Below are positions 9,070 to 38,259 of a stretch of DNA of 64,000 nucleotides, piece by piece. The notes under the pieces are model-generated. The model was given only the letters and a program-made list of their open reading frames with translations, was not told the origin of the DNA and did no database searches. Source of the DNA: Sarea resinae (Eukaryota); the NCBI GenBank assembly GCA_026026165.1, contig JAPEUD010000019.1:186001-250000 (forward strand). Direction: 5' to 3'. Position 1 is the first letter of the stretch. Each line of letters begins with the position of its first letter. The position numbers were made by a program, and so were the translations under genes.

Positions 9070-9516
9070 TCACTCCCCCCTCCGGAACAAAGCCGCCTCG
9101 CTCGTCTCATGACGATGGCCAGTCAAGCAGCGCAATCCGCGAGCCAGACTGCCCAAAATTTTCTTGCTTTTCTTAGGATTCCGGATCTCTTCCAAAGGAT
9201 GCTGAGCCAATTCCGCTTTTAACGCAGCTAATCGGGCCACAAAAACCTCACGGCTCTTTCCGGCTTGATACGCATAATGTGCTGCTTCCTCTTGATATAC
9301 GAACCGGGCACCCGTCGTTGTTGTATCTCGGTAGAGAGCTTGGCGGCGCTCGTGGCATTCGGGACAGGAAGCCTGAACTATTTCATGGTCATACCGGTCG
9401 AAGAAGTCGTTCTTGGTACAGTATCCCGTTCCACGAGACTTACTCTCGCAGGAGATAATGGCTACCTCCTCCCAGTGAGTGCAGCGGGTATAGATTCGCG
9501 AATATCCTATGCACAT
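9070..9516 (-). CDS. Small 'MC' Cys/His putative zinc-binding protein, copy A (148 aa if unspliced)
   Basis: MCIGYSRIYTRCTH-x8-C-x9-C-x17-CPEC. TATAAAA on the minus strand at 9612-9618. A GTGAGT donor overlaps the stop, so a spliced C-terminus is possible. Confidence 0.75.
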   Translation of the reverse strand: MCIGYSRIYTRCTHWEEVAIISCESKSRGTGYCTKNDFFDRYDHEIVQASCPECHERRQALYRDTTTTGARFVYQEEAAHYAYQAGKSREVFVARLAALKAELAQHPLEEIRNPKKSKKILGSLARGLRCLTGHRHETSEAALFRRGE

Positions 9517-9643
9517 CTTGATGGGAATTCTTTTCGTGAAATTTTTGGAAGTTTTTGATTGAGGGGAATGGGTATATCGGTTCCTCAGAAGTTGGGGGGC
9601 AGTTGAGAGGATTTTATAGCGAAGAATAGAGTGGGAGGAAATG

Positions 9644-10145
9644 CTGTTCAAAGGTTGTTGAAGTATGTTTAGGTTCTGTTCAGAGACAAAGAACCGCGAT
9701 GTTGTATTTCTCTTTGTGTCTGTCTTCGTTGAAGCCTTACACTTCCTTGTTGTCATTGGTGGCTTCTTTGTCGCCTTTCTCGTTGTCATTGTTGTCTCTA
9801 CCTTCATTCAATGGTACTCGTCAACTCCCTGACCTCTTAGATCTCCTCTCTCATACTGGTCTTCTTCTGTTCATCGTTATTGTTCCCCTTGAATGGTCAG
9901 CGATTCCTCACAGCCCCTTCTCTGTACACAAGACTCTTGTTCTGTATACACAAGGTCTTTCTTCTTGTCTTTTTCAGAATTGCTTTAAACTTTCTGGCTC
10001 TATTCGGAAATCCAGAAAGCTCGAGAGACTGTTCAGATATGAATGGACAAATCTGGCGATGAACAGCGCGGGAACAAGAACAGCAGTACTGTTCATCAGT
10101 CTATCAGACTGCCTTCATAACTCTGAATCCACCGAATGCTGTTCA
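9644..10145. promoter_or_regulatory. Seven CTGTTCA/TGAACAG motifs in the divergent promoter of MC copies A and B
   Basis: Exact 7-mer at 9644, 9676, 9867, 10029, 10060 (reverse), 10089 and 10139. TATA boxes at 9612-9618 (-) and 10168-10174 (+). Confidence 0.6.
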
Positions 10146-10316
10146 CATTTCCCCCCTCTTCACTTCCTATAAAAACCCATCTACCCACTCTCTCCCTACT
10201 TTTTTGAAACCAAGCCTCTCGATCTTCCGTTTCCTTCCTCTCCTGTTTTTGAACTATCACTTATCATCAACTAATAAATAGCAATCACTGCCCAATCAAC
10301 GTTACAGTCAGTCAAG

Positions 10317-10886
10317 ATGTGCCAAGGATATTATAAGCTCTACGACGGATGTGCGCATTACGACACGGAGATTCTTATCCCCTGCCAAGCTGGCGTCACA
10401 AATGCCTGTCCTGCCAACGCCTTCGTGCCTATCCAAGACCCCAAGCGCTACTCAATCCCTTGTTCTGTTTGCCTCGAGCAAGACACCGACTTGATGTACG
10501 CCTTCACGCAGTCTGAAGTCATCCCGCAGCCTCAACCAGAGCCGCAGGCCGTGCAAGAGGAGCAACTCGTCCGTTTGGCGCAAGATGTGATGGATATCGT
10601 CGAACCCAACGAGCGCCTGCGCCTTGCCGAGGTAGAAAAGGCCGAACGTGCACACCAAGAGGAAACGGAACGTTTGCGTTTGTTCCAGGAGAATGAGCCG
10701 CAGCGCCTGGAGCGCGAACGTGTCCATTTGAATCATGTGGCCTATCTCGAGGGGCTAGCTGCAGAGCGTGCGCAGGAAAAGGAGGCTAAGCGCGAGCGTC
10801 ATAGGCAGGCGGAAGCTAGCCGTGAGGAGTTTCGCCGACGGAGGATGGAGTCACTTAGGCCGAGGAAGTCGACGCCGAAGTATTGA
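10317..10886 (+). CDS. Small 'MC' Cys/His putative zinc-binding protein, copy B, with Glu/Arg-rich helical tail (189 aa)
   Basis: MCQGYYKLYDGCAH-x8-C-x7-C-x17-CSVC. Good start context (gtcaagATG) and TATAAAA at 10168. Confidence 0.8.
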   Translation: MCQGYYKLYDGCAHYDTEILIPCQAGVTNACPANAFVPIQDPKRYSIPCSVCLEQDTDLMYAFTQSEVIPQPQPEPQAVQEEQLVRLAQDVMDIVEPNERLRLAEVEKAERAHQEETERLRLFQENEPQRLERERVHLNHVAYLEGLAAERAQEKEAKRERHRQAEASREEFRRRRMESLRPRKSTPKY

Positions 10887-12689
10887 GAGAAGAGGTGAGT
10901 AAGAGAGATAGGGGAAGAAGAGGAAATAAGGGGATGTTGGTGTCGCTAGCTGGCTAGCTGACTGAGCAACTGACTTTGATTGTCAGTATCACTTCGCCAA
11001 CTGGCAGGTCCAGCAAACAGTTCAAACAGATATCGACAATAGCCGGGAGACGAAGCTGCAGGACATGCCCCCAACCCCCTACAAAGGGCCCTAAAGAACT
11101 CGAAAACAGACCGAGAGAAAGAAATCCACGGTGAGATCATTCATTCCCCACGCTCGTTAGCTGACTTGGACAGATTCTTTTCTTTGGTTTGATTTGCTCT
11201 ACTTTTTTTTTTCCTTTGCGTGCAAGCTCAACGTCCTGAACAGAGTTTGTTCGTCTCGAGGCTCCCTGGGGGGCTCTCAACACGCTCGTTCAGCAGTTCA
11301 GCAGCTTCAAGCTTTTCTTTTGTCTTGCCTTGTCTTGTCTTATCTTTCCTTTATCTCTTTTCTTTTACCGTCAACCTACTTTACTGGAGCCAATCTATCT
11401 TTTTACCTGTCTGTCAATATCAAATTAGGATCAAATCGATGTCTCACTGCTTTGATTTAGTACTCTATTTGTTGACTACAAGAGCTTCGACAATAGGAGA
11501 CTTCAGACCTGAAATACGTGCAATTCAAGCATGCAAATGTGACCTGAGTGATTCGTAGAGCACTAGGATAATGAAAAGTGAGATGGTTTGATGTCAGCCG
11601 TGGAAAACAGAATAGAAAAAGAGGCCTGATTTCCATGGCGAAAGCTCTATGAGGGGCTTGGCATAGATAGTCGAAAATTCAGCTACATCATGTCGTTCGA
11701 CGGTAACATTGCTCAGTGACGTGTCGCCCAAGAGGAGCTACAAAATGCTCAATTGAGCCTGGAGATAAGTCTACCTCTCGGAGCCCGGAGCGGGACCGAC
11801 GACCCTGAATAGCTCCGGCGCCACCCCCGCTTGCCAGTCAAGGGACGCCTTTATCCTCCTGCATCCCGTTGCTATCTAAGGTATGTACCGGATAGGTTAG
11901 CGTTCCGAGGACCCCTAAACGAGTTGCGGACCCCATTATCACGACATGCTCTCATTAGAAGGTGCAAGCAAGCACGCGTTTAGAGCGCTCCATCCATCCT
12001 TCAAGAATGATGCTTCCTACGTTGTTTTCGCGATATAAGGCGTATCTGACAGCGTATAGTGTAGTCCCAATTCTATCCGCAGGCTGGCCACTCATGCGCT
12101 ATCAACGATTACAGTCGAAAAGAGTCTATCGAGTACTAGAGTATCCCATGGGCCCCTCCTAGAATTGGGTCATCATCAATTGAACCACAAGGCCATGCGC
12201 GTCCCTGGACCAGGGCTGAGTGTGCTGCAGGGGTGTCGGTAAGTGTTGGCTTGACCGACGGATGTTATGTAAGTCCTGGACTGCAGCGTCAGCAGCTCGA
12301 CAGATATCAGCTCAATTCCCACCAGGCCCAGGGGGAAGGTCGGGATGCTACAGAGCTAGTCTGTTGGCCGCGCCGCTGGACAAGGAGGGCTTGAGCAGAT
12401 TCGGGTCCCTCCACGTTGATCATTATCTGCTTCTATCAACCGTTATCATGGCTGATCCATGCTGCCATGATGCTGTATACGCGTCAAATCCCTGATCAGA
12501 TCATCGCTACATTTCTTGGCGGCAAAGATGTGGGTTTGCCTTGACCGGAATGCGTTATCGCCGTTTTACCCTTCAACTTTCCCAGATGGCTTGAAGCTCT
12601 CTGCTGGTGAAGGAAGTTTTTAGGGGCAGTCTCCCTCCTCGAAGTTTCTCTCAGCTCTGCAGCATTGCTTGTATCGCGAGTCTTTTGTT

Positions 12690-14350
12690 ATGCATTCCCT
12701 TTCGCTTTTTGCTCTCTGTTGCATCGCAACCGCAACTTCTATTGGTGCGCAGACATGGCCCAATCAGACGTTCAAGACGGTCCGCTATCAACCACCACAG
12801 CTACAGATCTCCAAGTTGGGGGAAGCTCTTGCACCGGGCTTGCTCTTCTTCACGGCCACCAGCACTGATGGGTCCGAGGAGACGGCCCCCTTGATCATGA
12901 CCGATACGGGCGAGCTGGTCTGGAACGGTCAACAGGGCAAACACGGCAATCTTTTGGTCCAGACACTGGACGGCAACAACGTCTTGTCTATGTGGCGTGG
13001 CAGCGGCTCTGCGGATACAGCTATTGCAGGCCATGGATACGGAAAGGTCGAGATCTTGGACACCACTTATACCGAGATCTATACGGTGTGCCCAGAACTC
13101 GACCTCGTCACGCCCAATAATACCAAGTATGATTGCTATGCGGATCTCCACGAGTCTTATATCACGGAGCGAGGATCGATTCTCGTCACAGCCTATAACA
13201 TTACTACGGCTGATCTCAGGTCTGTGGGCGGGCCGCGGAACGGCTGGGTCTACGATCCGATGTTCTACGAGATCGATATCAAGACCAATGAGACGCTGTT
13301 TCATTGGAGTCCAACAGCCTCGGGCATCCCAATCAATGCTACTCATCAGCCCCTCGATGGGACAGGATCGAGTCAGTCGGACCCTTTTGACTGGTTCCAT
13401 ACAAACTCCGTGCAGTCTATTGGAACCGGCTACTTGGTCAACAGTCGGCATCTGTGGACTACGTTCTTGCTGAATTCCACGGGTGGTATCAAGTGGAACA
13501 TCTCAGTATGCTCTCTCCTCGATGGCTTGAGCGTTCTATAGTTCTGACTCCATTGAAGGGCGACACAGGAGGGTCTTTTACCCTGCCCAAGCAAAACATC
13601 TTCGTGAGTCTACCCATCCCTTTCCCCATTTGGGCATCAATATCTAACTCCTTCCACCATTTTCAGTCATGGCAACACCATCCTCGGGCGCAAAACATAA
13701 CATCGACCTCGCTAGAGCTGCACTACTTCAACAACGCCAACGCTGGCCCACCCTTCAACGGCACCAGTCCAACAACGGGTCTGGAACTCTCACTCGACCT
13801 GACCAATTTCACCGTCACAGTCATCCGGAACCTCAGCGATCCCAACGACGCCCTCTACGCCGACACGCAAGGGTCCTTCACCCCGCTCTCCAACGGCAAT
13901 GTCTTCATGGGCTATGGCCAGATCCCGAAGTTCAAAGAATTCGGGCCGGACGGTGATAGCGATGTCCGCATGACCGTCACCTTCGGCGACACCAAGACGC
14001 AGTCCTACCGCGCCTATCGCGAGTCTTGGAATGCGACGCCCTCCGCTGCACCCGACGTCTATGCTGAAAACGCTACGGCGTACATGAGCTGGAACGGCGC
14101 CACAGATGTCACGAGCTGGACCGTGTACACGGGGACAGACGGGGCCGATCTCGCGACGGCTGGGTCGGTCGATCGAAGCGGCTTCGAGACTTCGTTTGGA
14201 ATCGCCGCCAATGCGACGCGCGTCAAGGTCGCTGCGTATGCAGGGGATGTCTTTTTACGTAATTCGTCGGTCGTACTTGTGAATGGGGGTCATAATTCGA
14301 CGGCGAATACTAGTAGTGCTGCTGTTAGCCGCCGCTGGAGGAGAGGTTAA
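12690..14350 (+). CDS. Secreted arylsulfotransferase-family (ASST / Arylsulfotran_2) protein (~514 aa)
   Basis: Exons 12690-13505, 13559-13603, 13667-14350, in frame. Signal peptide MHSLSLFALCCIATATSIGA. Family motifs DLHESYIT, DWFHTNSV, YLVNSRH, SWQHHPR, SYRAYR, YMSWNGAT, GFET. Confidence 0.9.
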
Positions 14351-15609
14351 GTAATTGGCTCTTTCCTTACTTGACTTGGAGAACCCGGTGAGTGTTCTCT
14401 GGGTAGCTAACGTAGCGTAGCTGCGTAAGACACTGTTCATACTCTTTGTTCTACTATCAAAAATTCATCATAGAATCTATACTCAATCACCTCATCTCTC
14501 CTTTGATTACTCACAAAGCACTGTCTTGTTAGCAACCAAAATCAAGACGCTACAACCATCCATCCGGAATCTGGCCCTCTATTCCTTCCACACTCAAGAG
14601 ACATTACTATTCACGCAACCGAAACAGAGGCCCTTCTAGGGTGCTACCGCTTTGGCTCGCAGATCTCGATAATGCTTAACGTACCTCTGTGTGTTCCCCA
14701 GCCCCGTCTTTTCAGGAGTCCTTTATATCTGTCTCCCTCATCTTGACTCAATTTCGCAGATCCGGGCTTTTCACTTTATATTGACACCAATGCTACAAGA
14801 ACAGCAACAGTGCCAATAGTGACGATATGGAGATATACTTACTCTCTGCCATCCCTCTTTTCCCCTTTGCTATAGGAAGTGCTCTTGGCTTAAGACAAGG
14901 AGAATTATAGAACCGCCTGGAGAAAATACAAGAGAGTGAGAGGAGAGTTATTAGACGGCTGAAAGAGCTATAACCAACTAACTACACAGCTCTCTTCCTA
15001 ATCTTTCCGCCGCTATCCTATCCTACACTCTTCTATCTCTATACTATCCTGCAGAATGCCAGCACATAGCAGAACAAAGCCAACTACCTTTCAGTGAACA
15101 GGATAGCACAACCTACGTAAGAAAGAAGCCTAATCCCTTCTAGACAACAAAGGCTATTGTGTAGTAACAATGAATTGTTCAGCTGACAGAATAATAGAAC
15201 AAAGACTGCACGGTATAAATTTGCTACTAAGCAAACACAACATGGTTGACACTCTCAGCACCTAACAAAGAAAGACAAAGAGTATTACTCGACATTGTCG
15301 ATTCCTGAACAGATCTATGAACTCCCTCTCTTCTTCCTTCCAGTCATTGGCTCTTGTCGAGGGCGGCCCTGTTCAGGTAATCCTGCCAAGGGGGATCTTG
15401 TTCAGCGGAAGCATAAATCCCCCCCCCTCTCCTCCTTTTTCTCTCCGTATCTAAAATTTGATCAAATCAGTCTTCGAATACCAAACTCCAGCGCTTTTTG
15501 TTCCCTGATCTCTGCTTTCTGTCCCAGTGCTAACACTATACCAGTTACCAACCCCAAATCCACTTTTCTTTTGTCCACTTCGCCTTCAACCACCAACACA
15601 TACTCCAAT

Positions 15610-16338
15610 ATGTGCTTCGGCTACTACCGCGTCTATGCCGGTTGCCACCACATATTCGACCAAGTGATTACCTGCGAATGCTATGATGGCTATGATGAGC
15701 ACACAGGGTTGTGCAACACGGGCGATCTCTACGAAGAGGATCCCCCGCTCGAGCTCGATCCGGCGGAAATCGAATGTCCGCTCTGTGGCGGTGATCAGGG
15801 GCAGGATGGGCTGCGTATGTTGCTAGATGACACGGAGCTTTCGGACGATGAAGAGGAGAATAGAGAAAAGGGAGAGGATGAAGAAGAAGGTGCGTATGCT
15901 TCCGGAGAGCCCAATACCGTCGCCCAAGCTCAGGCTTTCCAACAGGCCCAGGCCCTGGCCCACCAGCCGGCCCAAGGAGAACCCGATCAAGACATGCTTG
16001 CACCCGAGGAAGATTATGGAGAAGCGGAAGAGGAAGTGGAAGAGGAAGATGACTACACTCACATCGAGAACGTAGTCTTCGCGCAAGCCCAAGCGATCCA
16101 ACAAGCCTACAACACCAACCAATTCGAAGTCGAGGTCCACCAACTAGCCTACGAGCCAACCGCAGAAGTAGAAGCAATCGAACAGGAGATCCTCGCGCGC
16201 CAGGAGCGTCGACGTGTCTTTCTTGCCAATTCGAACTATCACATGTCGCGCGGCCGGCAGATCCAGAATGCTGAACGCCGCTTTGTCAGGCAGGTCGTGC
16301 GTGATATTCGACGGCAGATGAGGCCGAGGGGTCGTTGA
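15610..16338 (+). CDS. Small 'MC' Cys/His putative zinc-binding protein, copy C, with acidic linker and basic tail (242 aa)
   Basis: MCFGYYRVYAGCHH-x9-C-x10-C-x20-CPLC. The first ATG is at 15610; the ORF track's TTG at 15295 is unlikely to be used. Confidence 0.8.
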   Translation: MCFGYYRVYAGCHHIFDQVITCECYDGYDEHTGLCNTGDLYEEDPPLELDPAEIECPLCGGDQGQDGLRMLLDDTELSDDEEENREKGEDEEEGAYASGEPNTVAQAQAFQQAQALAHQPAQGEPDQDMLAPEEDYGEAEEEVEEEDDYTHIENVVFAQAQAIQQAYNTNQFEVEVHQLAYEPTAEVEAIEQEILARQERRRVFLANSNYHMSRGRQIQNAERRFVRQVVRDIRRQMRPRGR

Positions 16339-16859
16339 CTTCCTCAAGGCCGACGACGCTTTTGAGGCTTGTAAATATTTTTGCTGATCGTTAGTAGGTA
16401 GGTACAGCTGGCTGGCCTGACCGATTGAGTGGATCGGAGATGCTTGAGAACACGAAAAAGGAGATCAATGACATTGACAACGTCGACTGGAATCGACGCC
16501 GACGCAATACCGATGCGAATTCTGCAGGCGCACAAGCAAGCCTGACGAAGAGCGAGAATCCTCGCGAACCGGAATATCACCCCAAGGAAAGACGAACGCA
16601 GGTGAGAGATCTCTATCTTAGCGCTTGCGCACACGCACATGTCTACCCCTTTCCTTTTTTACTAACCACAGCCACGACGGCAACCAACCACCATTTTCGT
16701 TTGTGGTTCTCTGCTACCTCCCTTTCCCTTTCCCTTCCCCTTCCTTTCCCTCTGCCCCCTGCTCCAGACCTCTGACCCCACAATACACAACCCCTAAGCT
16801 GGCTTAAGGGCGTTAGAAAGGGCTCGAAAGAGGAACGCTGTCTCTGTTATTCTGGCTTT

Positions 16860-17300
16860 ATTTTAAACTTCACACTCCTTTGGCTGCTTTTCCTTTGTTC
16901 TTCGCTTCACGCTTCTTTGGTTGCTTTTCTTTTGATCTTCTATCTCCACTTTCCTTTTGCCTTTCCTTCCTCTTTCGGTCTACTTTCCTCTGTCTTTCCT
17001 TTGGCTTTCCTTTCTACTCCTTTCTACTCCTTTCACTTTCCTTTTCCTTTTTCTAAACCCCTACTTTCCTTTCCTCTTTTCCTTCCTCTTTCGGTCTACT
17101 CTCCTTCCACTTTTCCCTTGTCTTTCCTTCCTTTTCCTTTTCCTTTTTTTCCTTTTCCTCTACTTTCGTTTTCCCTTCCCTTGCTCTTTTAGTCTACTTC
17201 TACGCTCACTTTCCTTTCCTTTCCTTTGTTGCCCTGAACCCTCTCTTTCTCTTCCTCTATCCTATCTATATACCCCTCTGCTCTCTCTCTCTCTAGAGGC
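16860..17300. repeat. Long polypyrimidine (CT-rich) low-complexity tract
   Basis: About 440 bp that is almost entirely C/T on the + strand (ttcctttcc-type units). Confidence 0.85.
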
Positions 17301-18622
17301 AGTCCTCTCTTATACCTAGACACATCTACATATCTACACGCCTACTCCTACGCCTACTTGTAGTCTAGTCTACTATGTCTAGTCATACATATATATATAT
17401 ATATACAAGTATCACGTTCCCTACCCCTATATCCCTCTCTTTTCCCTTTCCTAGTCTATCCTCTCTCTATTCCCTCTCTTCTATGTGTATCCTGTATCCT
17501 GTATCTTATATCCTGTATCCTACATCCTACACCCTACATCCTCCTATCCCGCATCCCCTATCCCGTATCTCAGTAGCCAGCCAAACCGCTAGACTAGCTT
17601 ACTAAACTAACTAAACTAACTAAACAACCTCTACCTCTTCTCTCTCATAAGCTAAGCCTTATAAACTACGCCCTTGTTGCCTTATCTTACTGTTTCTTAA
17701 GGCTGTTAATAGGTTAGGATAGATATAGGCACTGTAGGTAAGTAGGCAAGGGAGTAGATTAGTAAGGTAAAGTAAGTAGGTAGGTAGGTAAGAGAGTAGA
17801 TAGGTAAGTAAGTGAGTAAGCAAGCAAGCAAGCAAGCAAATAAACACGGTAAAAAACAAACAAACCACCCCCCCTCTTTACCCACCTAATCAATCAACCA
17901 CTAAAACAGCAGCGCTTAAGACTCTCTCTCTCTCTCTCTTTTTGTAGAATAGAGAAGAAGTGTAGGATAACTATTCAAACAGTGAAACTTAACGGCAAAA
18001 GAGAAGAGATTGTTTTATCGATACAACAACTGTTAGACACTAACACTAACTCTACTACTACTGACTACTACTACAGATAATATCATTCTAAGTGTGCTGC
18101 AATTGCAGCGTCTAGATAGATGATTTAAATGACGATTTCGTTTGATAGTAATGGAATATAATCTTGGTGCGTGCGTGCGTACGTGCGTTATAATCTTCGT
18201 TTTTCTCTGTTTTAGATAGAGGTTAGAGGCTAGAGAGATGGATCTGAACGAAGTGAGCTGAGAGCATTTGTATGTAGGTAGGTAGGTATGTTTGTATACA
18301 TGGCTAGTTCTAGACAGATGCAGAGAGACACACGGAGAAAGAGAGAGAGAGAGAGAGATGGATGGAGGGAGAGAGATGCGACTATACATATACCGTGAAC
18401 AGGTGCGAAATACCATGCATGCATCTTTTATACTATGCTGTAACTTATCATATCAAATCAGAAAACACCATCGTCATCGTCATCGTTATCGTCAATGTCC
18501 AAATCCGCACGCCCTCCAGCCAAGAAGGAAAGATATCCAGCCAAGCACAATGAATCTTAGTCCTCGCAGGGAGGAGGGATAAGAGGGAGAAAAAAAGAGA
18601 ATTCAACATGAGCAGAGCTCAC

Positions 18623-24600: not shown

Positions 24601-25064
24601 CTATGTTGAACTCATAGCCCAATCTAACATAGACGTCTGAAACCTCTGCTTCGGTAGCATTGTGTCGGGACCATTGCGTGAGTGTCTCTAGCAGTTGTTT
24701 GGTTGCAATCAGTAGATGTGTGACGCTCTTCTCTATCTGGGAGAGTTGCTGTTGCGGTTGCTGTCCATCCGACGTCAGCAACTCGCACCTGAAGTCATTG
24801 TGCTCCGTCCGAGTGATCGGAGACTCTCTGAGGGAACCTCTCAAGAACCGAACCAAGCAGACTAACGGATCTACTCACATTTTGCCTCCTCTGAGGAGGT
24901 GATTTTGCTGATCCAGATGAGTTCCTCGGTGCTTGAGAATCTAGAAGTGAGGCGCTGGCCATGTTTCCTGACGATGTCGAAGGACGAGGAGTCGATGGCA
25001 GACCGGCATCAGGAGCGGGAGACCTCCTCTGCATCGGCCTCTGCGAGCCCTGGGGGGCCTGCAT
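21692..25064 (-). CDS. BUD6: Actin-interacting protein 3 / bud site selection protein 6 (polarisome component), ~1084 aa
   Basis: Exons 25064-24879 and 24760-21692. Motifs IEKSVTHLLIATKQLLETLTQW, LFLQYKSKIKK, LQLAFIEKF, VDDLQDLVEDLRKDV, EKPIWTKIWEKEL. Confidence 0.93.
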
Positions 25065-27039: not shown

Positions 27040-30000
27040 ATGGCGTCCACAGCCACGGCTGCCCCGTCGGCCAATGGTACCTCAGCCAACGCCAGCCTTT
27101 CCTCGACGCCGCCTAATCCGCCCGCGAGTGGGAATGGCAGGCCGCAATTCAAGACGATGTCGAGTAGCAAGTCAGCTGACGCCAGTCGAAAGACCGCCAG
27201 CAGTCCGTTTGACGGAGCTCAGCGGTAGGTCATCTTTCGTTTTGGACGACATCTACCTCGATCGAAGCGTTTCTCCAGACCTGCTTCCTGCATGCCGCCA
27301 CGGCATCAAAGCAATCCTTCCGTAGTTCCCGTCGAGTGGACCCTCTTCGCTTTTGCAGTGTCCAGATGTCTTACCCTTGATTCACACTAAGCACTCTCGA
27401 ATCTCATAACCATTTGTCTGCGCTCACCCTATTTTTTTTGCAAAACAATTGTATCAATCGCTTCCTGATATGCATTCATGCTCAACTTCTTACTAATACC
27501 GAACCGTGCTTTCGATTAGGAAACCTCCCACGCAGAATGCCTGGGCTCAGGGTACAAATCCTATCACTCAACGACCTTCACACTATGACCAGCAAAATGG
27601 CGTTGTGACTCAGACAAAGGGAGCGAGTACTTCGAGGGTGACCAATTCTACAACAAAAGAATCGAATACACCAGAGAAGCATGCGAACGATCGATTGTTA
27701 TTTCTGATGGCAAATTTCCTGGTGAGTGACGAGCAATTCCTTGTGGCTATCGAAGAATTAGTCATGTATGCCTCCATGCAACCGCACAATGTACTTTCGA
27801 GAAGATCTGATGTCCCAGGCCTGGATATGTACTCGTATTCTTGTTGAACACTCAGAGATTCCATTCGAATTTCTTTGTGCTGGATGCTTGGATGATCTGT
27901 ATTCAGCGTTCACGTCATATCAAAGCCCCTTGCTAAGAGTCTGGCTTCTCTAGGGACTCGATGCCTCGATTACTGTGAAAAACGGCGACAAATTCACGGG
28001 AATATTCTCTGGCGCGACGCTAGAGACGAATGAGACATCGTACGTCTTGAAGATGGTCAAAAAGGTAAAGGCGGTTGGGAAAGAGCAGGCCAATGGGGTT
28101 ACAGATGGGAGCGATGAATATCTGGGTACTGGGGACAGCCATGCAATGACATTTGAGATCAGAGATGTCATTGACCTTGCTGTTGAGGGTGCATCACTCA
28201 CTCAGACCCAGTCTAAATCTCAGAATGGTATGCTATATCTTCCGATACTTCCGTTCTATTTCAGTAGATCTGACTCTAGTAGGGATGGCTTCGAAGTTCA
28301 AGACCGATTCAGATATCTCTGGAAATTTCGCAATGCCGGTTCGCAACCTGCAACGCTGGGAGCCAGCAGATGACAGCGGTCTTGATCTCTCACTCGAAAG
28401 TGGAGGTAACACTGGCTGGGACCAGTTCGAGGCCAATGAACGTCTTTACGGAGTGAAGAGTGACTACGACGAGAACATCTATACAACGGCCATTGATCGC
28501 TCAAATCCATTGTATAAACAACGGGCAGCCGAAGCGGAAAGAATTGCCCGAGAGATCGAAGGGCAGGCTACGGCCAACGTCCACCTTGCCGAAGAGCGCG
28601 GGCTGAGGGGCGACGACACGGGTATCGATGAAGAAGAGCGGTATGTATTCCTTCAAATGCCACCTTCGGATCATCAATATTGATATTTCATAGATATAGT
28701 GGCGTACACCGTGGAGGAGCCGAATTTCCTCCATTGCAGTCTGGCCCGGGAAAAAAATACACTCCTCCCGCTCGACGACCGCCCACAGGCCAGCCTACCG
28801 TGTCAGGGGCGCCAGTGGATCCGGCAATAATCTCGTCTCAGATCGCTCGCCCTGACCCTTCTGCGAAGAAGCCTGCACAGGATAAGTCGGTTCCTCCGGT
28901 TTCTCGGCAAGAGGCCCCTAGCAAACAAGCCAATGAGCAGGTCAAGAAGACCAGCACTGATTCGACTGCCAAGCCCGACGAGAAACCAGTAGCTACAACA
29001 GTGACTAGCTCCGAGACTGTTCCCTCTATCAAAGGAGTCACCGACGCTGAGCACAAGTCTACGAACGCCAAGACCAGCGGACCAAGCGTCTCTGCTTCTC
29101 CGAATAGGACTCATGGAGGTCCTGAAAATGCCACAGCCAACGTGGAAACAGAATTGCTTGATTCGTTCAAGCAATTTGCTAATAGTGAGAAGATGCGCGT
29201 CCAGGAACGGCGTCGCAACCAAGCCTCTCATGACAAGGCCATCAAGTTGAATGACTTGATGAAGTTCTCAAAGAATTTCAAGCTCATGACGCCGGTACCG
29301 AAAGATCTCGTGCCCATATTAGCCAAAGATAAAACCAAACAAGAAGAGATTATCGAAAAGGCTCGACGTAATGCGGAGGCGCCCAAGTCCAGTCCAGGAT
29401 CTTCGGTTGCAAAACCGACAGCCACTCCCACTGAGCAGAAAACGCAGCGTCCTGCGGCTGCTACGAGATACGACACTAGTGCTAACACTTCAAATGCCGC
29501 AGCGGATCGCCAGAGCTTCTTGCGTGGACGCCAAGGGTACTCGACGCAAGCGCCTTATAACAATCAGACGTCAAGGGGCGAAAGAGGGGTCCCGCCACAG
29601 AATTTGCCGCTGACATCTCCTCGTGGACCTGGTCTCTTGAGCCAGAGATTAGCCAACATCCAGCAGCAAAATCGCGCTGGAGGAGCTTTGCCGAATGTTC
29701 CCTCACCCTTGCCGATACAGGAGGTCCGGCTACCGCCGACCGGTCCAGCCGCCGGGTCTACAGGAATCTCTAGTCCTCAAAAGACTACGGCAGGCCTCAC
29801 ACCAACCTCGGCCATGGCATCCAAATTTAATGTCAAAGCATTGGAATTTAAGCCAAATCCGGCCGCGAGCGCTTTCACGCCCACTGGAAACCCGAGCGTT
29901 TCCTCAAGTCCACGATCGAATACAAATGCTCGCCCAACTTCACGAGTCTCCAGTCCATCGAGCTTTTTTGGAAACAAGAAACCTCTACCCACAGCTGAGA

Positions 30001-31114
30001 GGCCGTCAATCAATGATCACTTCAGTCCTATCAAACGTTTGAAGAAAGAGGCTGAGACCGAGAAGAAGGATTATGCATTCAATGGAGACATTAAACCAGC
30101 TTATACTACTAAGCCGACCTGGGATGTCGCCAAAGAGAATGAAAACAAGTCATACAAAGACATGTTTGATAGAGTACCATCTGCTCCTCCCTCGCACACC
30201 GCGAGCCCTCATCCTCCTCTCCCCCATCAACATCAATTGCCGTTCCATCTACAGCAAGGCGCCCAAGGCGTACCACAGGTCCAAACGCCACATGCTGCGC
30301 CACAGCACCTTCAACCGCAACCTCACTATCCAGCAGGTGGCCCTCATCATTTTGATGACCACCGCATGCATGCTTCGGCGTCATCATCTTCCATGTTTCC
30401 CTCTCCTCGCCTACAGCAGATAAATCTCGCCTATCCTTCGCCAATGAGTCAGCATGCTCAGCTAGCAACTTATGGCCAACCGATGCCTCAGTATGCAATG
30501 GGGCCCGGCGGCCCACAAATTGCTCATGTCAGGCAGTATCCTGGCGGTCCGCAATTCGTCAATCCACAAGGAGGGCACATTGCTCCCATGATGGTACATC
30601 AACAATCTGGCGGACCTTTCATGGGCGTTCCGCAAGGCATTCCATTCCAGCCGCATATGTATTCGCCTGCCCAGGCTCATGCGTATCCAGGTGGTCCACC
30701 TCCACAAGGTACTAACGGCTATCCAAGCCCTGGAAGAGGGGCACCGATGATGATCCACCAAGGGTCTCAACAAGGTCAACCGCCGCAGCAAATGATGTGG
30801 ATGAGTCCCGCCCATCATGGTCAGCCAATGTATGCTGCACAACAACCAGGGCAAAGTAAAAAATATCCTGTCTTCTTCTTTAACAAATTCTGACCTCTTT
30901 AGTGACGCCAATGCGGGGTGGATATCCTCCCCAGCAATCGCACTTCGCAAGCAGCCCACATCAGCCGCATCATTTCCCGCCTCAACCACATCGAGCTGGT
31001 CCCAATGGCAACTATGGTCAAGGTCCCCCACCTCCTCATGCCGCTGGTCAGCAAGTACCGCCACCTACAGCAGCTGCCGCTCGTACGTCGGATGGGCCTG
31101 AGGATGCTAAATGA
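27040..31114 (+). CDS. PBP1: Poly(A)-binding-protein binding protein / ataxin-2 homolog (LSm, LsmAD, PAM2), ~1130 aa
   Basis: Exons 27040-27224, 27520-27721, 27954-28227, 28283-28640, 28694-30855, 30903-31114, all joining in frame. LsmAD WDQFEANERLYGVKSDYDENIYTT; PAM2-like SKFNVKALEFKP. Probable 5'UTR intron 26741-27013. Confidence 0.93.
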
Positions 31115-31842
31115 ACATCGAATGAAGTTTATTGATGCACATATTCTGCCTTGGTGGCACCAATCGCAATGACATGCGGTTGAACCTTGGTGTTGCTCAA
31201 ACCCATCTCTTACTTTGTTTATCTGTCCTGGCTGCATATAGCGTGGCTGTTGCAAAAGCTGCCTTCTTTCCTTTGCTGTTCTGACGGCATCATCAGCGAA
31301 GTGGCGTTCTGGAAAAGTCTCTCTATTCTCTGGTGTTTGAGAGAGCTCTTTACGCAGAGGCCACGGCTGCAGCAGTTGGGATGTTATGTGGGTCAAAGAT
31401 GAGAAGGGACGAGATCATGTCGCCTCGCATCGAATGCGGGTGAGGCGAATCTTCCAGGGGTGGATACTGGAGGGGAGAGCAGAGGAGAGAAGCGGTAAGG
31501 GAAACTTGTGGGGAGGCTGATGGGGATAGATGGAGAGGGCAGATGACATTGCTTGGTGGCTGGCTTGCACTGTTTTATAAAGAATCCCGATAGTAAATCT
31601 GGCAATAGACAATATTGCGTGCTGTCCCAGGTCTTGGCTGGGTCTGATTGCTGCGAGGGATGACCAAGCAGAGTGGCATGGTATTATCTACGTGCAGAAG
31701 GGGCTTACAGAGGTCGTTCCACGGGCATTGGTCCCAAAAGATAGCCCTTTATTGCGCCGAAGAAGTTCCTTTTAGGCATATGTTATGTACAGTAATGGCA
31801 AATCTCCACTCCGCGCCACGGCTTTGTAATCCCAAGTTGATG

Positions 31843-32714
31843 CTATGATGTGGTTTCAGCGCTATTCTTCCTGAACGAAACCTTTTCCACCCCAACCGTC
31901 TCGACTCCGTTGGCGTCGGTCCGCAATTGGTATACGTAAAGCACGAGTACATCCCCTTGGACCTGTGTTGAGCGGTAGGTGTGTCAGCAGCAGCACCGGC
32001 AGCGCGAGCCCCTGAAGAAGCCGTATCGACAGAGGGCACGGGAAAGGGAGATCGAAAGAGGCAAACTCACGTCCATCAGACAAAAGCTCGGCACGGGCTC
32101 CTCGCCCTCGCCCCACCAAGCCGTACTCACAGCCCCCGTCGCACTGCCCGGGTTCACGAAGAACTTGCCCTCCAACTCGTAAGCCTCGAAGCGATGGGTA
32201 CCACCCCACAGCAGGACATCGACATCCATCTGGCGAGCGGCAATCAGCAAGCTATCGGCATCGCCCGGCGGCACGATCGTGTGGCCATGCGTGAAGCCGA
32301 TGCGTAGCGTGCCGTGCGTGACCACCTTCGAGAGCGCGAGGTTGGGCGCGTCGACGTCGTAGTCGCCCTTGGTGATCTGGAGGTCGGGCGCGATCGTGCG
32401 CAGGTAGTCGTACGTCTCTTTCGACGTCAGGTTGCCCAGACATAGGATTTGGCCGATTTTCCCAGGCGTCAGGAGTTTCTTGAATTTCGTGGGGATGTCC
32501 TGGGGTTTGGGGGATCGCTGGGTTAGCTTGCTGTGCGATTTTCTTCGTTCGCCGTGATTGTCTGTCTCACGGGCTGGCTGGTTGGTCCACCAGCTGGCGG
32601 ATTGGGTCTGTGGGATCATGATAGAGGCAAGAAGCGGGGAACAATGGCTCGACTTACAGGTGCCCTGTCGGGGATGAAGAGGTCCCCTAGCACCAGGACC
32701 AATCTCGAAGACAT
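31843..32714 (-). CDS. VPS29: Retromer subunit Vps29 (201 aa)
   Basis: Exons 32714-32658, 32499-32071, 31962-31843. MSSRLVLVLGDLFIPDRAPDIPTKFKKLL...ILCLGNL...GGTHRFEAYE...NPGSATGA...PSFCLMDVQG. Confidence 0.96.
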
Positions 32715-33588
32715 GGCGGTTCAGGAGCCACAGTCTTCGATGCCGATTCTGCTGCTGGTGCTCACGCAGTTGATGCTCGGGGCGCAAGTATTATGGGAAG
32801 TCGGTCTAGGGGTTGTGGTTGTGGTTGTGATTATTGCGACTGGCGCGCCTACATCTCATGCATTGGCTACTACTGACACCGACTGATTGACTGACTGACG
32901 TTGGTGATGGACTGCGATGGATGGACTGGGATGGGTCGGATCTTGCCGAGCGAGCTGTACTATTATGTATGCAGACTGACAATAGCAGTTGGGGGGATGA
33001 CACTATGGGAGTATTACAATCAACCAGTCTACTACGAACTCGATAGATGAGGCTGAAGCCGTTCGATTCACTGTGAAGCTCAATCAATTTGAAGCGATAC
33101 TGGTGTTGTTGATATCATGCGCGCAGCCTGAGCATGCCCTCTGGAGGAGCGTGCCGGATTCCGCCAGTGACGCTACGGAGTACTGACTTGTGCGACTTTT
33201 GCCGTGGACACGAATTACGCTTAGGTAAAAAGTAAAAGAAGAGGCAAGAGTCATACGGCGGTTCACGAAAAGCCATCAATTGAGGGCGGTGACTGGACGG
33301 GGTGCAGTGATCATGCTTGGCTGGTAGAGGAAAACTTTTCAATCCGTCATCACCACTTCTTATAAACATCACGGTGTCCTGACCTCACTAGCCCTCCACT
33401 CCATTCCACTGTCATCGTCCATTGTCGTCATCTCCTCCCCTCTCCTCCCCTCCTCTCCTCTCCCCTCCTCTCTCGGACAAGCCTGTGCCTGTCCGCCTCG
33501 GCCAATCACCCTCCCCCGAGATATCCCGCCCCACCACCTGGCCCCTCCCCCCTCCCCCCACCTCCGCTACCCCGCCACTACCACCGCC

Positions 33589-33786
33589 CTGGCTCCTCCA
33601 CGGGCACAGTCCAGATTAAGTCTCATCTCGAGACATCTGGACAGACGACCCGTGCTTGAGCTACACACTCCTTTCACCACCGAAAGAGACGCATCGCCCG
33701 AAGACGACATCGATCCAACTGTCCCTGCCGCCACTCCCTCAAACCGTCAGCAACAGATCAGCACCACCGCCGAGAAGATAGGCAAT
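33589..33786 (+). CDS. Predicted CUG-initiated N-terminal extension of AGX1 carrying a PTS2 nonapeptide
   Basis: In frame with the AUG, with no stop back to 33328. accgccCTGg context at 33589. Encodes APPRAQS-RLSLISRHL (33613-33639). No AUG seen in any frame between the TATA box and 33787. Confidence 0.6.
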
Positions 33787-35161
33787 ATGTCGTCAGATCA
33801 AGCGTCCAATCAGGCAGCGCATCCCGCGCTTCTCATCCCCGGCCCGATTGAGTTCGATGATGCCGTTCTACAGGCCATGGGCCATTTCAGGTCCGTACAC
33901 GTCTAGTCAAGCCCCATTACTTGCCCATTACTGACTGTGTCCAGTGAGAGCCATGTCGGCGCGCCCTTCGTCAGCGTCTTCGGCGAGACGCTCACCATGC
34001 TCCGCAAGCTCTTTCAGACTTCGAATCCTGCATCGCAACCCTTTGTCATCTCTGGCTCCGGTACTCTAGGCTGGGATCTGGTGGCGGCGAATCTGGCAGA
34101 ACCCGGCGACGACGTCTTGGTGCTGCATACCGGGTATTTCGCCGATTCGTTCTCCGACTGCTTCGAGACCTACGGCGCCAAAGCTACTCAGCTCAAAGCG
34201 CCAATTGGCGACCGTCCCCAGCTTCCAGAGATAGAGAAGGCCTTGAAGGAGAAGAAGTATAAGATTGTCACCGTCACGCACGTCGATACCTCCACTGGTG
34301 TCCTGAGCGAGCTCGCCGCCTTGTCCGATCTAGTGCATCGAGTATCTCCCGAGACGTTGGTTGTGGTGGACGGCGTATGCAGCGTCGGCTGCGAAGAGAT
34401 CCGGTTCGACGACTGGGGTCTCGACGTGGTCCTGACCGCCAGCCAAAAGGCCATTGGGTGTCCAGCCGGTCTGAGCATCCTGATGGCCTCCGGCCGCGCG
34501 ATCGAGACGTTCAAAGCCCGCAAGACGCCACCGGGCTCCTACTTTGCTTCGTTCAAGAACTGGCTCCCTAGTAAGTTCTAGTATACACCGTTATCTTCAT
34601 TACCTTCTAACCGTGCGATTCACAGTCATGCAAAACTACGAAGCCAAGAAAGCATCTTACTTTGCGACTCCCTCTCCCCAACTCGTCCGCGCCCTCCACA
34701 CGACCCTCACCCAGATCCTCTCCAAGCCGCTCTCGGACCGCTTCGCCGCCCACCGCGCCGCATCGCAGAAAATCAAAGCCACGGTCTCGGAGCTGGGCCT
34801 CCACCAACTGGCTGACAAGCCGGAGAACCAAGCCAACGGCATGACGGCCATCTACCTGCCCGAAGGCGTCAAGGCGGCCGATATCCTGCCGAATCTGCTG
34901 AAGAAGGGTGTCATTTTCGCTGGCGGGCTACACAAGGAGATTGCCGCCAAGTATGTACGGTTTGGACATATGGGTGTCAGTGTGGTGAGTTACCTTTTCT
35001 ACCTTTATCTTCTTCCAACTTTTACGAACCGTCCCCACTTTTTCATCTCATCCTGTGCGCTAACTTTGATGTTCCAGACGGACCCAAAGAGAGATGATAT
35101 CGACCGTGCGCTCAACGCACTTAAGACTGGATTGGCCGAGGCTGGTTACTCAAAAGCGTGA
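33787..35161 (+). CDS. AGX1: Alanine-glyoxylate / serine-pyruvate aminotransferase (class V PLP enzyme), 390 aa from the AUG
   Basis: Exons 33787-33890, 33945-34570, 34626-34984, 35078-35161. Motifs LLIPGPIE, GSGTLGWD, THVDTSTGV, VDGVCS, TASQKAIG (PLP lysine), RFGHMG. TATAAA at 33361. Confidence 0.95.
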
Positions 35162-35685
35162 TTGATCATAGATAAAAAAAAGGGTCTCGTTGGATTTCTT
35201 CTCTGCAAGCCTAGAATATAAAATTCAAAACTCAAAACCATGGAACAAGAATACGCATCTGACTGAGTGATTATGTCTTCTCAATCTCCATTCTTTTAAA
35301 TTCTTTTCTTAAGACGCTTTCGTTGGACTCAATCTACTAGCTGATCAACGTTGACATCTCCCTTTCAGCTCATACCATTTCACGTTGGTTGGAACTTGGA
35401 TATAATCATAGCAACTCATTCATTCACTTACTCATTTAGAAGCTCATTCATTCACTGGTCAAGGAAAGAAAATGTGGACCTTGGCAATATCAACAAGTTC
35501 TCATCTTCGATCAACATTTATCTCGATAGAGAGATTTTTAGGCAAGGAGCCGACCGAAAATAAAATGGGAAAAGCAAAATAAAGCAAAATAAAACTTGAA
35601 CCAAGAGAACGGCATCCTCCAACTTCTCAGCCCAGGGACAAGAAACAAACCCGTCAGCTCATCAAAACCATCATCATCATCATCT

Positions 35686-36072
35686 CTACCTCGCCTTCCC
35701 CTGACCCAGCACCTGCGGATAATGATATATCTTCGACGCTCCTGCCGCCGCCACCACCACCTCATCGCCGCCTACCACACCGCCCATATAACCCAGCCCC
35801 CCCAACCCAGCCAGGCGAACCACACCGCCCGGCACATCGGCCCGCCGCGTGCCCGAGACGCGGATCCCCGTCCCCGCCCCCTCCTCGGCCCGATCGATCG
35901 CGCACTCGGCACAGCATCCCTCGTGCGCGGCGGCGCGCCGGAGCACCTCGACCTCGGCGCCGTCGACGCAGCGTTTCGTGCGTGAGTCGATGCCGTGCGT
36001 GCAGGGGGCTAGGATCGCGGTGCGCTTGACGTGCGCGCAGAGGCGGTAGGTTAGGCGCTGGATTTGACACAT
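35686..36072 (-). CDS. Small 'MC' Cys/His putative zinc-binding protein, copy D, with Gly/Val-rich tail (128 aa)
   Basis: MCQIQRLTYRLCAH-x9-C-x10-C-x18-CAEC. Start context caaccATG; TATAAAA (-) at 36270-36276. Confidence 0.75.
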   Translation of the reverse strand: MCQIQRLTYRLCAHVKRTAILAPCTHGIDSRTKRCVDGAEVEVLRRAAAHEGCCAECAIDRAEEGAGTGIRVSGTRRADVPGGVVRLAGLGGLGYMGGVVGGDEVVVAAAGASKIYHYPQVLGQGKAR

Positions 36073-36354
36073 GGTTGTTTTGTTGGTTTGTCAGGCGGAG
36101 GGAGGTGGGGTTGCTGGATTGGATGATGGTTGGTGGGGCTGTTGGATTGGAGTCGGTGTTTGTACTTTCAAAAAAAAAAAGTCCGAAGGCGCAGAAGATG
36201 CTTGATTGATGCTTGGGTATTGGTCGTGATGGGTTTTCTGGATCTAGCATGGCGCTCACGAGGGGGGGGTTTTATATCCCCCCTCTGTCCCTGTCGTCGC
36301 CATTTCTCGAAGACGGTGCGAGAGCCATCTGAGAACAGCATTAGATCAGCAGTG

Positions 36355-36394
36355 GAACAGTATGAGAACAGTATGATAACAGTATGATAGCAGT
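36355..36394. repeat. 11-bp tandem repeat (GAACAGTATGA, ~3.5 copies) upstream of MC copy D
   Basis: gaacagtatga gaacagtatga taacagtatga tagcagt. Confidence 0.8.
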
Positions 36395-36865
36395 CACAGA
36401 AGCGATCATAGATGTTGAATGCTAAATGTTGCCTACTGCCTGCTGCTTGTTACTTACTACCTTCTGCTAGCAGGAGTAAAACTTCTGTTCACCGAGCTTG
36501 CGTTGAGGCTTTCTTAAAACATGGTCTCATAGTGGTTCGCATAACACCAGTACGGGCTGCTTGCCGTCATCCATTTGAGAGTGCCGATGTTGTGTAGGTA
36601 CGCATTGTCAGAAGAGGGCGGGAGGTGAAGGGCTGGGGCTTTGTCCTGTTCTGAAACTATCGCTCTTCTGGCCGCTTTTGTGGTACTATTTCTTTCGGGA
36701 GGAGAGGGGGAAAAAAGAGAGCTGTAGATTAATTCCTTCTCTTTGTCCTTTCTCTCTATGTTCGTCTTTGCTTTCTTCCTCTTGTTCTTCTATATTCAAC
36801 ATGTTCGCGCGAGGCGTTCTTTGTGTCTAGTTTAGCTCTCTTTGTTCCTGTTTTCTTTCTTACTT

Positions 36866-37063
36866 ATGTGCTTTATTACTATCTCTACCTATACCTGTCT
36901 ACACGCACCTAAGTGTTCATAGCTTACGCGGAGGATTTTCCTTTGGTGTTTCTAGGTATCTGCTCTATTTTAGATTTGTGTGTCTTGTTCTTCCTATCAG
37001 GCTTGTTACAGTATATCTGTAGGTAATGCATTCACAGCCTACGGAATCTGCATAGGGCTGTAA
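36866..37063 (+). pseudogene. Degenerate 'MC' family copy interrupted by three in-frame TAG codons
   Basis: Reads MCFITISTYTCLHAPKCS*LTRRIFLWCF*VSALF*ICVSC...GL*. Matches M-C-x6-Y-x-C-x-H and has an in-frame CxxC; lies between copies D and E. Confidence 0.45.
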
Positions 37064-37364
37064 TAGAGATCCTTGTTTAGCACATTGCGTGATGTTTACT
37101 ATCATTTCTCGTTATAGGATTACGCGTCACATTTCACAGGATAATATATTCGATATTGAAGGGGACATAGGATTGCTTTACCTGATAAAGGAGATACTGA
37201 CCGCAAAACAGAACACAAAATGACGGAGGGGAGATCCAAACCAAAAGAGAACGAAAAGGAGCTCACTTACCTCGCCTATCATGACCAAAGTCCTCTCAAT
37301 CTAGATTCCTTACTGTCAGAAAAAAAGTCTAGGACAACATACCTTGAAGCAGAGATGCTCCGAC

Positions 37365-37595
37365 TCAGGCCCCACAACCAGAGCAAAGGGCCAACATACA
37401 GTCCCACAATTTGACAGGCCATGACCTCTGCTTCTTTGCCGCGCAAGGAGTACACTCTTCAGACACGTAGTGAAGAGGAAACTCCTCCCGCTTGAATTTC
37501 TGTATCGCACATGAGAACCCACGACGGCATTCTTCCTGGACGACAAGTCGCTTGTCGTGGTTGCACGAGTACACTTCGACGTATCCCAGACACAT
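37365..37595 (-). CDS. Small 'MC' Cys/His putative zinc-binding protein, copy E (76 aa)
   Basis: MCLGYVEVYSCNH-x9-C-x5-C-x18-CTPC. Start context caaccATG; TATA-like run near 37746-37754. Confidence 0.7.
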   Translation of the reverse strand: MCLGYVEVYSCNHDKRLVVQEECRRGFSCAIQKFKREEFPLHYVSEECTPCAAKKQRSWPVKLWDCMLALCSGCGA

Positions 37596-38024: not shown

Positions 38025-38259
38025 GTAAACATCTGCTGAAAGTGCTTGACTTGTCAAATCGACCGGTGTCGAAAGGACAGTGCGTATTCGAGTACGCAGC
38101 ACGAACCCAAATACGGCAGGAAGTGGCCGCAGAGCAAAAGGCGCGCGGAACCGCGCTAATGGGTCGTTGCCATAGGAAACGAACTTCGGCAGCCCGACCC
38201 GGCGCAAGTCTATCGCGCGCTGAAGAAATCCGTCAACCGTGAATTGTGAACCGTAAACA
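38025..38259 (+). promoter_or_regulatory. RFX X-box flanked by two forkhead sites
   Basis: GTTGCCATAGGAAAC at 38166-38180; GTAAACA at 38025-38031 and 38253-38259. Confidence 0.55.

Follow-up and report, generated by a model that had tools for sequence, protein, structure and literature searches.

In RING domains of the C3HC4 type, eight ligands follow the order C-x2-C ... C-x1-3-H-x2-3-C-x2-C ... C-x2-C, and in treble clefs the zinc ion is held by a β-knuckle together with the N-terminal turn of a helix. Metallothioneins have a very high content of cysteines in CC or CxC repeats, contain few aromatic residues and adopt no regular secondary structure. Here we describe a family of small proteins that resembles the former in part, starting from five genes in a 64,000-nucleotide (nt) stretch of Sarea resinae DNA (contig JAPEUD010000019.1, positions 186,001 to 250,000), henceforth the window, in whose numbering coordinates are given unless another locus is named. 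We propose that the first 51–59 residues of these five small, non-secreted proteins would take up two metal ions, zinc being the most likely one, and fold around them into a portable binding or scaffolding unit, and that the unrelated tails, with basic patches, long charged helices or terminal cysteines, would set location or partner. The family would be old and widespread in filamentous ascomycetes, with old subfamilies keeping specific surfaces. The window genes may represent a young, divergent and co-regulated branch, in which four of the five genes would go back to local duplication followed by rapid divergence, with a common promoter code retained, i.e. an HMG-box site plus the word TGAACAG; they would be switched on together, most likely in the sexual cycle. 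That the genes and the family are real is close to certain; the complete chain from the module to sexual-stage co-regulation is put forward tentatively, as falling a little short of probable.

The closest described regulatory system is the FMF-1/PaHMG5/Ste11 regulon with its TR-box. According to the passages cited here, PaHMG5 of Podospora, the Ste11 orthologue whose loss leads to male and female sterility, binds an (A/G)ACAAAGAA site in electrophoretic mobility shift assays (PMC3730723), and the FMF1 motif TCTTTGTY is the one most enriched in modules of genes co-expressed during the sexual stage of Fusarium graminearum (PMC11708053, Table 3). RACAAAGA is the reverse complement of TCTTTGTY and equals the first eight bases of (A/G)ACAAAGAA. 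As in this regulon, all five window genes have RACAAAGA within 800 nt upstream, with sites in all four upstream regions. The cluster differs from it in that the more abundant word TGAACAG is undescribed in these passages of PMC11708053 and PMC3730723, and that dispersed family members lack RACAAAGA enrichment.

The initial annotation had reported five open reading frames (ORFs) with a common Met-Cys motif, and the ORF list of the window indeed contains them at 9516-, 10317+, 15610+, 36072- and 37595-. They share the pattern M-C-x8/9-C-x-H-x8/9-C-x5-10-C-x17-20-C-x2-C, with all spacers inside the ranges proposed, and the full motif occurs five times in the 64-kb window and not once in 100 block-shuffled windows. 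Gene 9516 (9070–9516, minus strand) encodes 148 residues, with the module at 9355–9516, ligand spacers of 9/8/9/17 and a basic, helical tail containing PKKSKK. Gene 10317 (10317–10886, plus strand; 189 residues; module 10317–10472; spacers 9/8/7/17) has a Glu/Arg-rich tail with a basic end, and gene 15610 (15610–16338, plus strand; 242 residues; module 15610–15786; spacers 9/9/10/20) an acidic, Gln-rich tail that likewise ends basic. The tail of gene 36072 (35686–36072, minus strand; 128 residues; module 35902–36072; spacers 9/9/10/18) is Gly-rich, and gene 37595 (37365–37595, minus strand; 76 residues; module 37443–37595; spacers 8/9/5/18) has a 25-residue tail with three cysteines. Genes 9516 and 10317 lie head to head with an 800-nt spacer, and 36072 and 37595 are arranged in tandem. 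As had been noted, four of the five begin with MCxGY, the other, 36072, with MCQIQ. In the module alignment identity to the first row is 23–30%, and seven of the nine invariant columns are Cys or His. The tails differ in composition and are unrelated, as claimed before; BLASTN among the five loci returns about 21 nt at the start codon plus a few matches of 12–30 nt, and otherwise no similarity. All five starts carry A at -3, and ATG 9516 is favoured over a longer ORF from 9807 because the TATA element at -102 falls within the latter. A possible intron at a GTATGT donor in gene 37595 would cut its product to 66 residues. Genes 10317, 15610 and 36072 are represented among database proteins (P0002, P0001 and P0003, respectively), and 9516 and 37595 have no entry there. 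P0001 (12690–16338, 747 residues) is a gene call that fuses an arylsulfotransferase to the 15610 ORF through the 5' leader of the latter; given that an ATG context and an upstream motif cluster of its own are present at 15610, this is probably a mis-join.

The module is not confined to the window. A DNA pattern covering the first four motif positions gave 21 matches in the 25.5-Mb assembly against 1 for a control pattern, and wider patterns plus translation bring the total to at least 22 members, five in the window and 17 on other contigs; this is a minimum, because members with an intron within the first 13 codons would escape detection. The complete motif lies in one frame in 14/17 dispersed members; the remaining three are L041, which carries an insert, L018, which is split by an intron, and L022, where the first four ligands only are in frame. 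Five members within 28.5 kb are far above a uniform spread (binomial 7e-9). A search without the ATG requirement gave 14 matches (control 16), among which were four family modules, all starting with Met-Cys; in this small test, the module is thus N-terminal. In L041 (889–1455, minus strand; by eye) a Ser/Pro/Thr-rich low-complexity insert of ~125 residues separates the fourth from the fifth ligand, and the module ends with C-x2-C-x2-C-G; the loop between these ligands therefore tolerates large insertions. The dispersed members also include four loose pairs with partners 22–37 kb apart (G000 contigs C1, C76, C90 and C120), where 0.43 would be expected among 17 members (P ~0.001, with the 40-kb limit picked after the fact). 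Two outside members have CaaX-like C-termini, L036 (1501–1791, CVVS) and L091 (401–619, CIVQ); these ends and the Cys-rich short tail of 37595 are possible lipid anchors.

In profile searches, as proposed in the initial annotation, no Pfam family reached its cut-off, whether with the five full proteins, 18 members or 67 members (the best row for the five full proteins being DUF5639, E 0.0005, below cut-off), and PDB sequences gave 0 matches to the family profile at E 10. Relatives of L018 were found in Polychaeton, Pyrenochaeta, Botrytis, Monilinia and Xylogone, each carrying a hypothetical or uncharacterized label; both Dothideomycetes and Leotiomycetes contain conserved subfamilies. The nearest clusters in the ESM Atlas are all labelled 'hypothetical protein' and come from Ascomycota, without a common Pfam family. 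The earlier view of a modular Cys/His domain on unrelated tails, widespread in Pezizomycotina, is thus borne out. Scanning metagenome contigs with the pattern yielded at least 116 matches. Among the 116 listed, 58 complete the motif in one frame by a CxxC outside the search pattern, 8 have a stop codon ahead of the fourth ligand, and in 50 the frame stays open as far as this ligand but the motif is incomplete, 12 of these 50 being completed by removal of one consensus intron; the other incomplete matches listed belong, by eye, mostly to the same subfamilies. In prokaryote genomes (596 billion bases) the same pattern found 16 matches, of which 13 lack the motif and three are family-like. Family genes in records titled as bacterial metagenome-assembled genomes are L284 and L291 (record OZ255840.1) and L277; L284 contains spliceosomal introns of the GT...CTAAC...CAG type, and OZ255840.1 therefore holds eukaryotic, probably fungal DNA. 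As far as the search pattern reaches, the family is essentially fungal. We found no description of it in the literature, supplements being excluded and subscription journals lying mostly outside coverage. Since a single 25-Mb genome contains some 20 members and others are widely distributed among filamentous ascomycetes, it represents a sizeable unannotated family, which is under-counted because gene callers miss or mis-join members, as in P0001.

Across 67 aligned members, the six cysteines and the histidine are invariant or nearly so at a mean column identity of 23%. Residues between the ligands vary widely, an aromatic residue before Cys-x-His is conserved, and some subfamilies keep surface residues across fungal classes. 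In four conserved subfamilies, non-synonymous divergence (pN, 0.11–0.25) is far below synonymous divergence (pS, 0.43–0.91), with pN < pS in 256/257 pairs; members had been assigned to subfamilies by their protein pattern, which biases pN downwards, and the five window genes lie outside this comparison. No orthologues of these five were found in the searched sequence collections, only the genome's own proteins coming back: HMMER with a five-sequence profile against 1.84 billion representatives returned P0001–P0003 and one unrelated repeat protein (E 1e-4), and word-index searches with window members gave no proteins from other genomes. When 1642 window segments are compared with a profile built from 49 outside members, 37595, 10317 and 36072 come out on top (E 0.003–0.016). 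By their sequences, the window genes are divergent members, and what ties them to the family is chiefly the ligand pattern.

The four MCxGY genes group together as a single clade in a tree of 67 rows (94/93, slightly below what the tool counts as strong support), and the MCxGY start occurs in 4/67 aligned members, all from this window. Gene 36072 falls outside this clade and is placed in an open fork. Thus, of the local amplification claimed before, duplication of four window genes appears moderately supported; 36072 stands apart, and the window holds only five of the at least 22 genome members. As DNA similarity between the four has been erased, the duplication would be old. Two results weigh against a firm placement of the window genes. 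The tree is based on 58 columns with unsettled bootstraps, and the outside-member profile is weak on these genes (E 0.003, 0.005, 0.016 and 0.2; best reversed control 0.1), with the domain of 9516 at E 0.2 and 15610 unlisted at E 10.

Words shared between the promoters link the five genes to each other. Over the 2.6 kb of sequence preceding the five genes, CTGTTCA/TGAACAG (11 versus 0.5 expected) and ACAAAGA/TCTTTGT (8 versus 0.55) are the top two of 8191 7-mers, and 0/1000 dinucleotide shuffles reach the observed counts of CTGTTCA or CTTTGT. The 164 non-coding control windows of 600 nt contain on average 0.07 TGAACAG and 0.09 RACAAAGA; two copies of TGAACAG occur in one of them and two of RACAAAGA in another, which is the region upstream of ORF 60690. 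Upstream of the five genes RACAAAGA occurs 6 times in 2600 nt (expected 0.40) or 8 times in 3200 nt (expected 0.49). The shared divergent promoter of 9516 and 10317 (9517–10316) has a TATA box at each end, seven TGAACAG (9645, 9677, 9868, 10030, 10061, 10090 and 10140) and two RACAAAGA (~9684 and ~9765). Upstream of 15610 (14433–15609, plus strand) TGAACAG lies at 14433, 15096, 15307 and 15370 and RACAAAGA at ~14442, 15198, 15264 and 15274, that is, three copies of each within 600 nt. The region upstream of 36072 (36073–36872, minus strand) has TATAAA at about -200, five GAACAG, one being TGAACAG, and RACAAAGA at -675 and -774; an ~11-nt tandem repeat of the GAACAGTATGA type at 36333–36394 is the source of three of the GAACAG. 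Upstream of 37595 (37596–38195, minus strand), one RACAAAGA at -271 and two TGAACA are found. TATA(A/T)A elements stand at -102 (9516), -149 (10317) and -159 (37595), so that the TATA-like element ascribed to most of the genes is present at four of the five, 15610 having none.

The promoters are not alignable, and the shared words are therefore no leftover of recent copying. In a search for a wider TGAACAG regulon, three genome-wide scans for TGAACAG pairs gave 12 versus 5, 2 versus 5 and 6 versus 0 for controls, and RACAAAGA-TGAACAG pairs gave 6 versus 5; the 9517–10316 spacer is the sole locus returned by all three TGAACAG searches. The other TGAACAG loci are mostly coding or lie beside unrelated genes, leaving the word without a known target-gene anchor. 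Enrichment of TGAACAG and RACAAAGA at the cluster promoters is new here; we found no description of TGAACAG in the literature, where subscription journals lie mostly outside coverage. According to the cited passages of PMC11708053, hypothetical proteins account for over half of the genes under regulation during sexual development in fungi. The promoter result provides five candidate genes, a candidate regulator and a new cis-element, and hence the first testable functional clue. A promoter architecture like that of the window genes was observed at L207 (1500–1610, G000 C27), with five TGAACA(G/A/C) and one RACAAAGA located 240–350 nt upstream of a 338-residue low-complexity orphan ORF.

From these words it is likely that the five window genes are co-regulated. 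They lend indirect support to a stage-specific expression, and the cluster may possibly be active in the sexual cycle. RACAAAGA also occurs upstream of this genome's MAT1-1-1, the alpha-box gene at L245 (G000 C17), and at two HMG genes; no obvious MAT1-2-1 was seen among the 8 HMG matches in the genome. L239 is presumably the FMF-1 orthologue. A number of observations weigh against this reading. The words were recognised after the fact, and 7/11 TGAACAG lie in one intergenic region; 37595 lacks TGAACAG, and the RACAAAGA sites of 36072 are 675–774 nt away. The regions upstream of MAT1-1-1, STE2 and STE3 contain no TGAACAG, and those of STE2 and STE3 no RACAAAGA either. Over 600 nt, TGAACAG is present in 2/16 and RACAAAGA in 3/16 dispersed members, L329 having neither, and each word stands at 0.11 per 600 nt among the 106 metagenome members; these are background levels, and the promoter signal therefore belongs to the cluster and not to the family. 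Moreover, according to the passages of PMC3730723 cited here, as many as 5% of Podospora genes carry the HMG site, and a Rox1-type HMG factor has non-sexual roles.

It is therefore necessary to consider that the same zinc module and the same co-regulation serve a non-sexual programme such as hypoxia, starvation, conidiation or stress, under a Rox1- or PaHMG8-like HMG protein or a TGAACAG factor. The absence of the dominant word at the mating-type and pheromone receptor loci just named fits this scenario, as does the presence of several HMG genes in the genome; CTGTTC, from the reverse of TGAACAG, resembles the Rox1 core ATTGTTC. In the passages of PMC3730723 cited above, Rox1 is an HMG factor without a sexual role, which also fits. 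Against this scenario stand the RACAAAGA sites themselves, 8 versus 0.5 expected and spread over all four upstream regions, and the rank of this motif in the Fusarium sexual-stage modules (PMC11708053, passages cited above). All in all, a non-sexual programme is a serious but unlikely alternative to sexual-stage control.

As regards the module itself, two AlphaFold2 models computed with the family alignment predict similar folds. For 37595, strands at residues 2–8, 14–20 and 41–43 and a helix at 49–55 are predicted (mean predicted local distance difference test (pLDDT) score 79; residues 21–30 at 57), and for a conserved member strands at 3–9, 14–20 and 35–42 and helices at 23–28 and 48–52 (pLDDT 87). 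The two models agree in strand order and helix (strands ~2–9, 14–20 and 35–43, helix 48–55), consistent with a three-stranded antiparallel sheet followed by a C-terminal helix. Foldseek gave no match at E 0.001 in PDB or BFVD. The best VIA fold scores were Z 3.1 (root-mean-square deviation (rmsd) 7.4, 56 aligned) and Z 2.7 (rmsd 7.8, 54 aligned); that the fold is new does not follow from these searches.

The module resembles the second zinc site of RING domains and treble clefs in its Y/F-x-C-G-H hairpin turn and the C-x2-C at the start of the C-terminal helix; secondary-structure prediction puts C-x-H in the hairpin turn and CxxC where the helix begins, and fold scores are too low to assign the module to the treble-clef, Fur or bL31 folds. 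It differs in being always N-terminal and, from RING, in having one N-terminal Cys in place of CxxC, His-x8-9-Cys in place of a spacing of 2–3, and seven ligands instead of eight; the best Pfam RING hit is at E 0.061 in 1/67 members. The C-terminal Zn(Cys)4 domain of Fur/PerR (PDB 2fe3, 2rgv, 9ire) shares the predicted order strand-turn-strand-helix-strand-CxxC-helix and provides the top Foldseek rows for the conserved-member model, which are non-significant (E 0.30–0.76; VIA Z 2.1–2.2, rmsd 5.7–8.1, 43–49 aligned, 9–14% identity). In contrast to Fur/PerR, the module is eukaryotic, has Cys-x-His in place of the hairpin CxxC and three extra conserved cysteines, and starts at residue 2, the winged-helix DNA-binding N-domain of Fur being absent from the family. 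For the window model, the top rows are the zinc domain of bL31 (E 0.36–1.4, also non-significant; VIA Z 2.1–2.2, rmsd 3.3–3.5, 38–39 aligned, ~5–18% identity), which likewise combines a hairpin-turn C-x-C/H with a distal C-x2-C. bL31 has one zinc site, the family lacks the ribosomal context, and Pfam and PDB sequences gave no match pointing to bL31 homology. Like fungal metallothioneins and secreted small Cys-rich proteins, the window proteins are small, contain cysteines and belong to a class that is often unannotated. Family members differ from both in their ~11% Cys, fixed pattern with aromatics and long charged tails. The module has six conserved Cys in 51–59 residues, a conserved Tyr/Phe and a predicted regular fold, features that set it apart from metallothioneins, and no N-terminal hydrophobic signal is recognisable by inspection, which separates it from secreted Cys-rich proteins. 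A link to the 'metallothionein-like' MAT1-1-4 gene was considered and dropped, as no paper was found.

From the predicted structure we infer two metal sites. Site one would be formed by Cys11-x-His13 at the hairpin turn and the CxxC after strand 3, and site two, at the opposite end of the sheet, by Cys2, Cys22 and Cys32 with a fourth ligand missing. That Cys2 always directly follows Met points to its alpha-amine, freed by Met removal, as a possible fourth ligand; the site could also be completed by water, by a bridging thiolate or by a partner. A seven-ligand module fixed at residue 2 would be an unusual metal-site design. The metal would most likely be zinc, judged from the ligand pattern, and disulfides are less likely than metal because none of the five sequences shows a signal peptide by inspection, the N-termini consisting of Met-Cys and a polar/aromatic strand without a hydrophobic stretch. 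The family is thus predicted to work as a small, hitherto undescribed zinc finger. Some points weigh against this assignment. The two-site partition is read from predicted secondary structure, and acetylation of an N-terminal Cys is expected from NatA specificity and would abolish the amine ligand. Taken together, the data show the ORFs, the family and its spread, the enrichment of the promoter words and, with moderate support, the local clade; the fold is predicted, and metal identity, ligand partition, amine ligand, adaptor role and sexual-stage expression are inferred from these. A homodimer prediction for a conserved member with zinc, made without an alignment, scored 0.30, the mark being 0.32. 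A bolder version of our proposal, which we consider rather improbable, is that of ascomycete-wide two-zinc fingers in which the Cys2 thiol and alpha-amine close a site, Met removal, N-acetylation or oxidation switches the fold, the module is reused on many tails, and the locus is a fast-evolving, HMG-controlled sexual-stage expansion with TGAACAG as its own element.

Alternatively, the proteins may be metal carriers or buffers binding Cu(I), Zn or an Fe-S centre through six Cys and one His, in which the open coordination position does the work and the tails route the metal. Seven ligands do leave two tetrahedral sites unfilled, several members comprise hardly more than the module (48–76 residues), and the inter-ligand residues are widely variable. 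However, the fixed ligand order, the conserved aromatic before Cys-x-His and the predicted sheet are unlike metallothioneins, the surface residues kept by some subfamilies across fungal classes speak for specific partners, and no metal-response element was noticed, no systematic search for one having been made. We regard a carrier function as improbable. A still smaller chance is given to the idea that the window genes act in the sexual cycle as selfish or recognition genes, e.g. spore-killers, antidotes or incompatibility factors. Local duplication, long branches, the failure to find orthologues and the HMG-type sites upstream would suit such genes, but the tails have no toxin-like, nuclease or membrane-pore domain, base composition is ordinary and the neighbours are housekeeping genes.

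The initial annotation had also considered Cys2 as an N-degron, that is, an oxygen- or NO-sensing end feeding short-lived proteins into the Cys/Arg pathway. The Cys is indeed invariant directly behind Met, and an arginyl-transferase domain is present in the genome. N-degrons need an exposed, flexible end, whereas Cys2 begins a confidently predicted strand, and the genome yielded 0 PCO/ADO (PF07847) candidates in a search that does find the intron-bearing ATE_C, although an incomplete assembly could hide one; this option is very unlikely. Equally remote is that the five ORFs are non-functional chance matches or decaying copies, since lacking orthologues and two missing database entries are set against the empty shuffles, seven ligands and open frames kept at 23–30% mutual identity, A at -3 in 5/5, TATA boxes in 4/5 and shared promoter words.

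The surroundings of the five genes contain JmjC, arylsulfotransferase, AIP3/Bud6, LsmAD, metallophosphoesterase-fold, class V aminotransferase, Ecl1 and Xpo1 genes, at a base composition that is ordinary. The description as two clusters between conserved neighbours holds as to the neighbours; the first cluster, however, is a head-to-head pair with a third gene 5 kb off behind the arylsulfotransferase. Two candidates for a sixth member were rejected: ORF 36866+ shows the MC..CxH start in only 18 codons and is a chance match, and ORF 60690+ keeps only C-x-H and CxxC, with a profile-comparison probability of 1%. The latter (60690–61478, plus strand) is a 262-residue orphan with an N-terminal extension and an internal strand-C-N-H ... 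W-C-D-T-C, in which the other three Cys are missing. Directly downstream of 9516, a 160-residue ORF (7813–8295, minus strand) contains several Cys (CxxC, CxxxCP and later H-C and C). Finally, 16001–18000 is the sole 2-kb bin of the window with indices resembling repeat-induced point mutation (TA/AT 1.55, (CA+TG)/(AC+GT) 0.84), and it consists of CT-rich low-complexity DNA directly after 15610.

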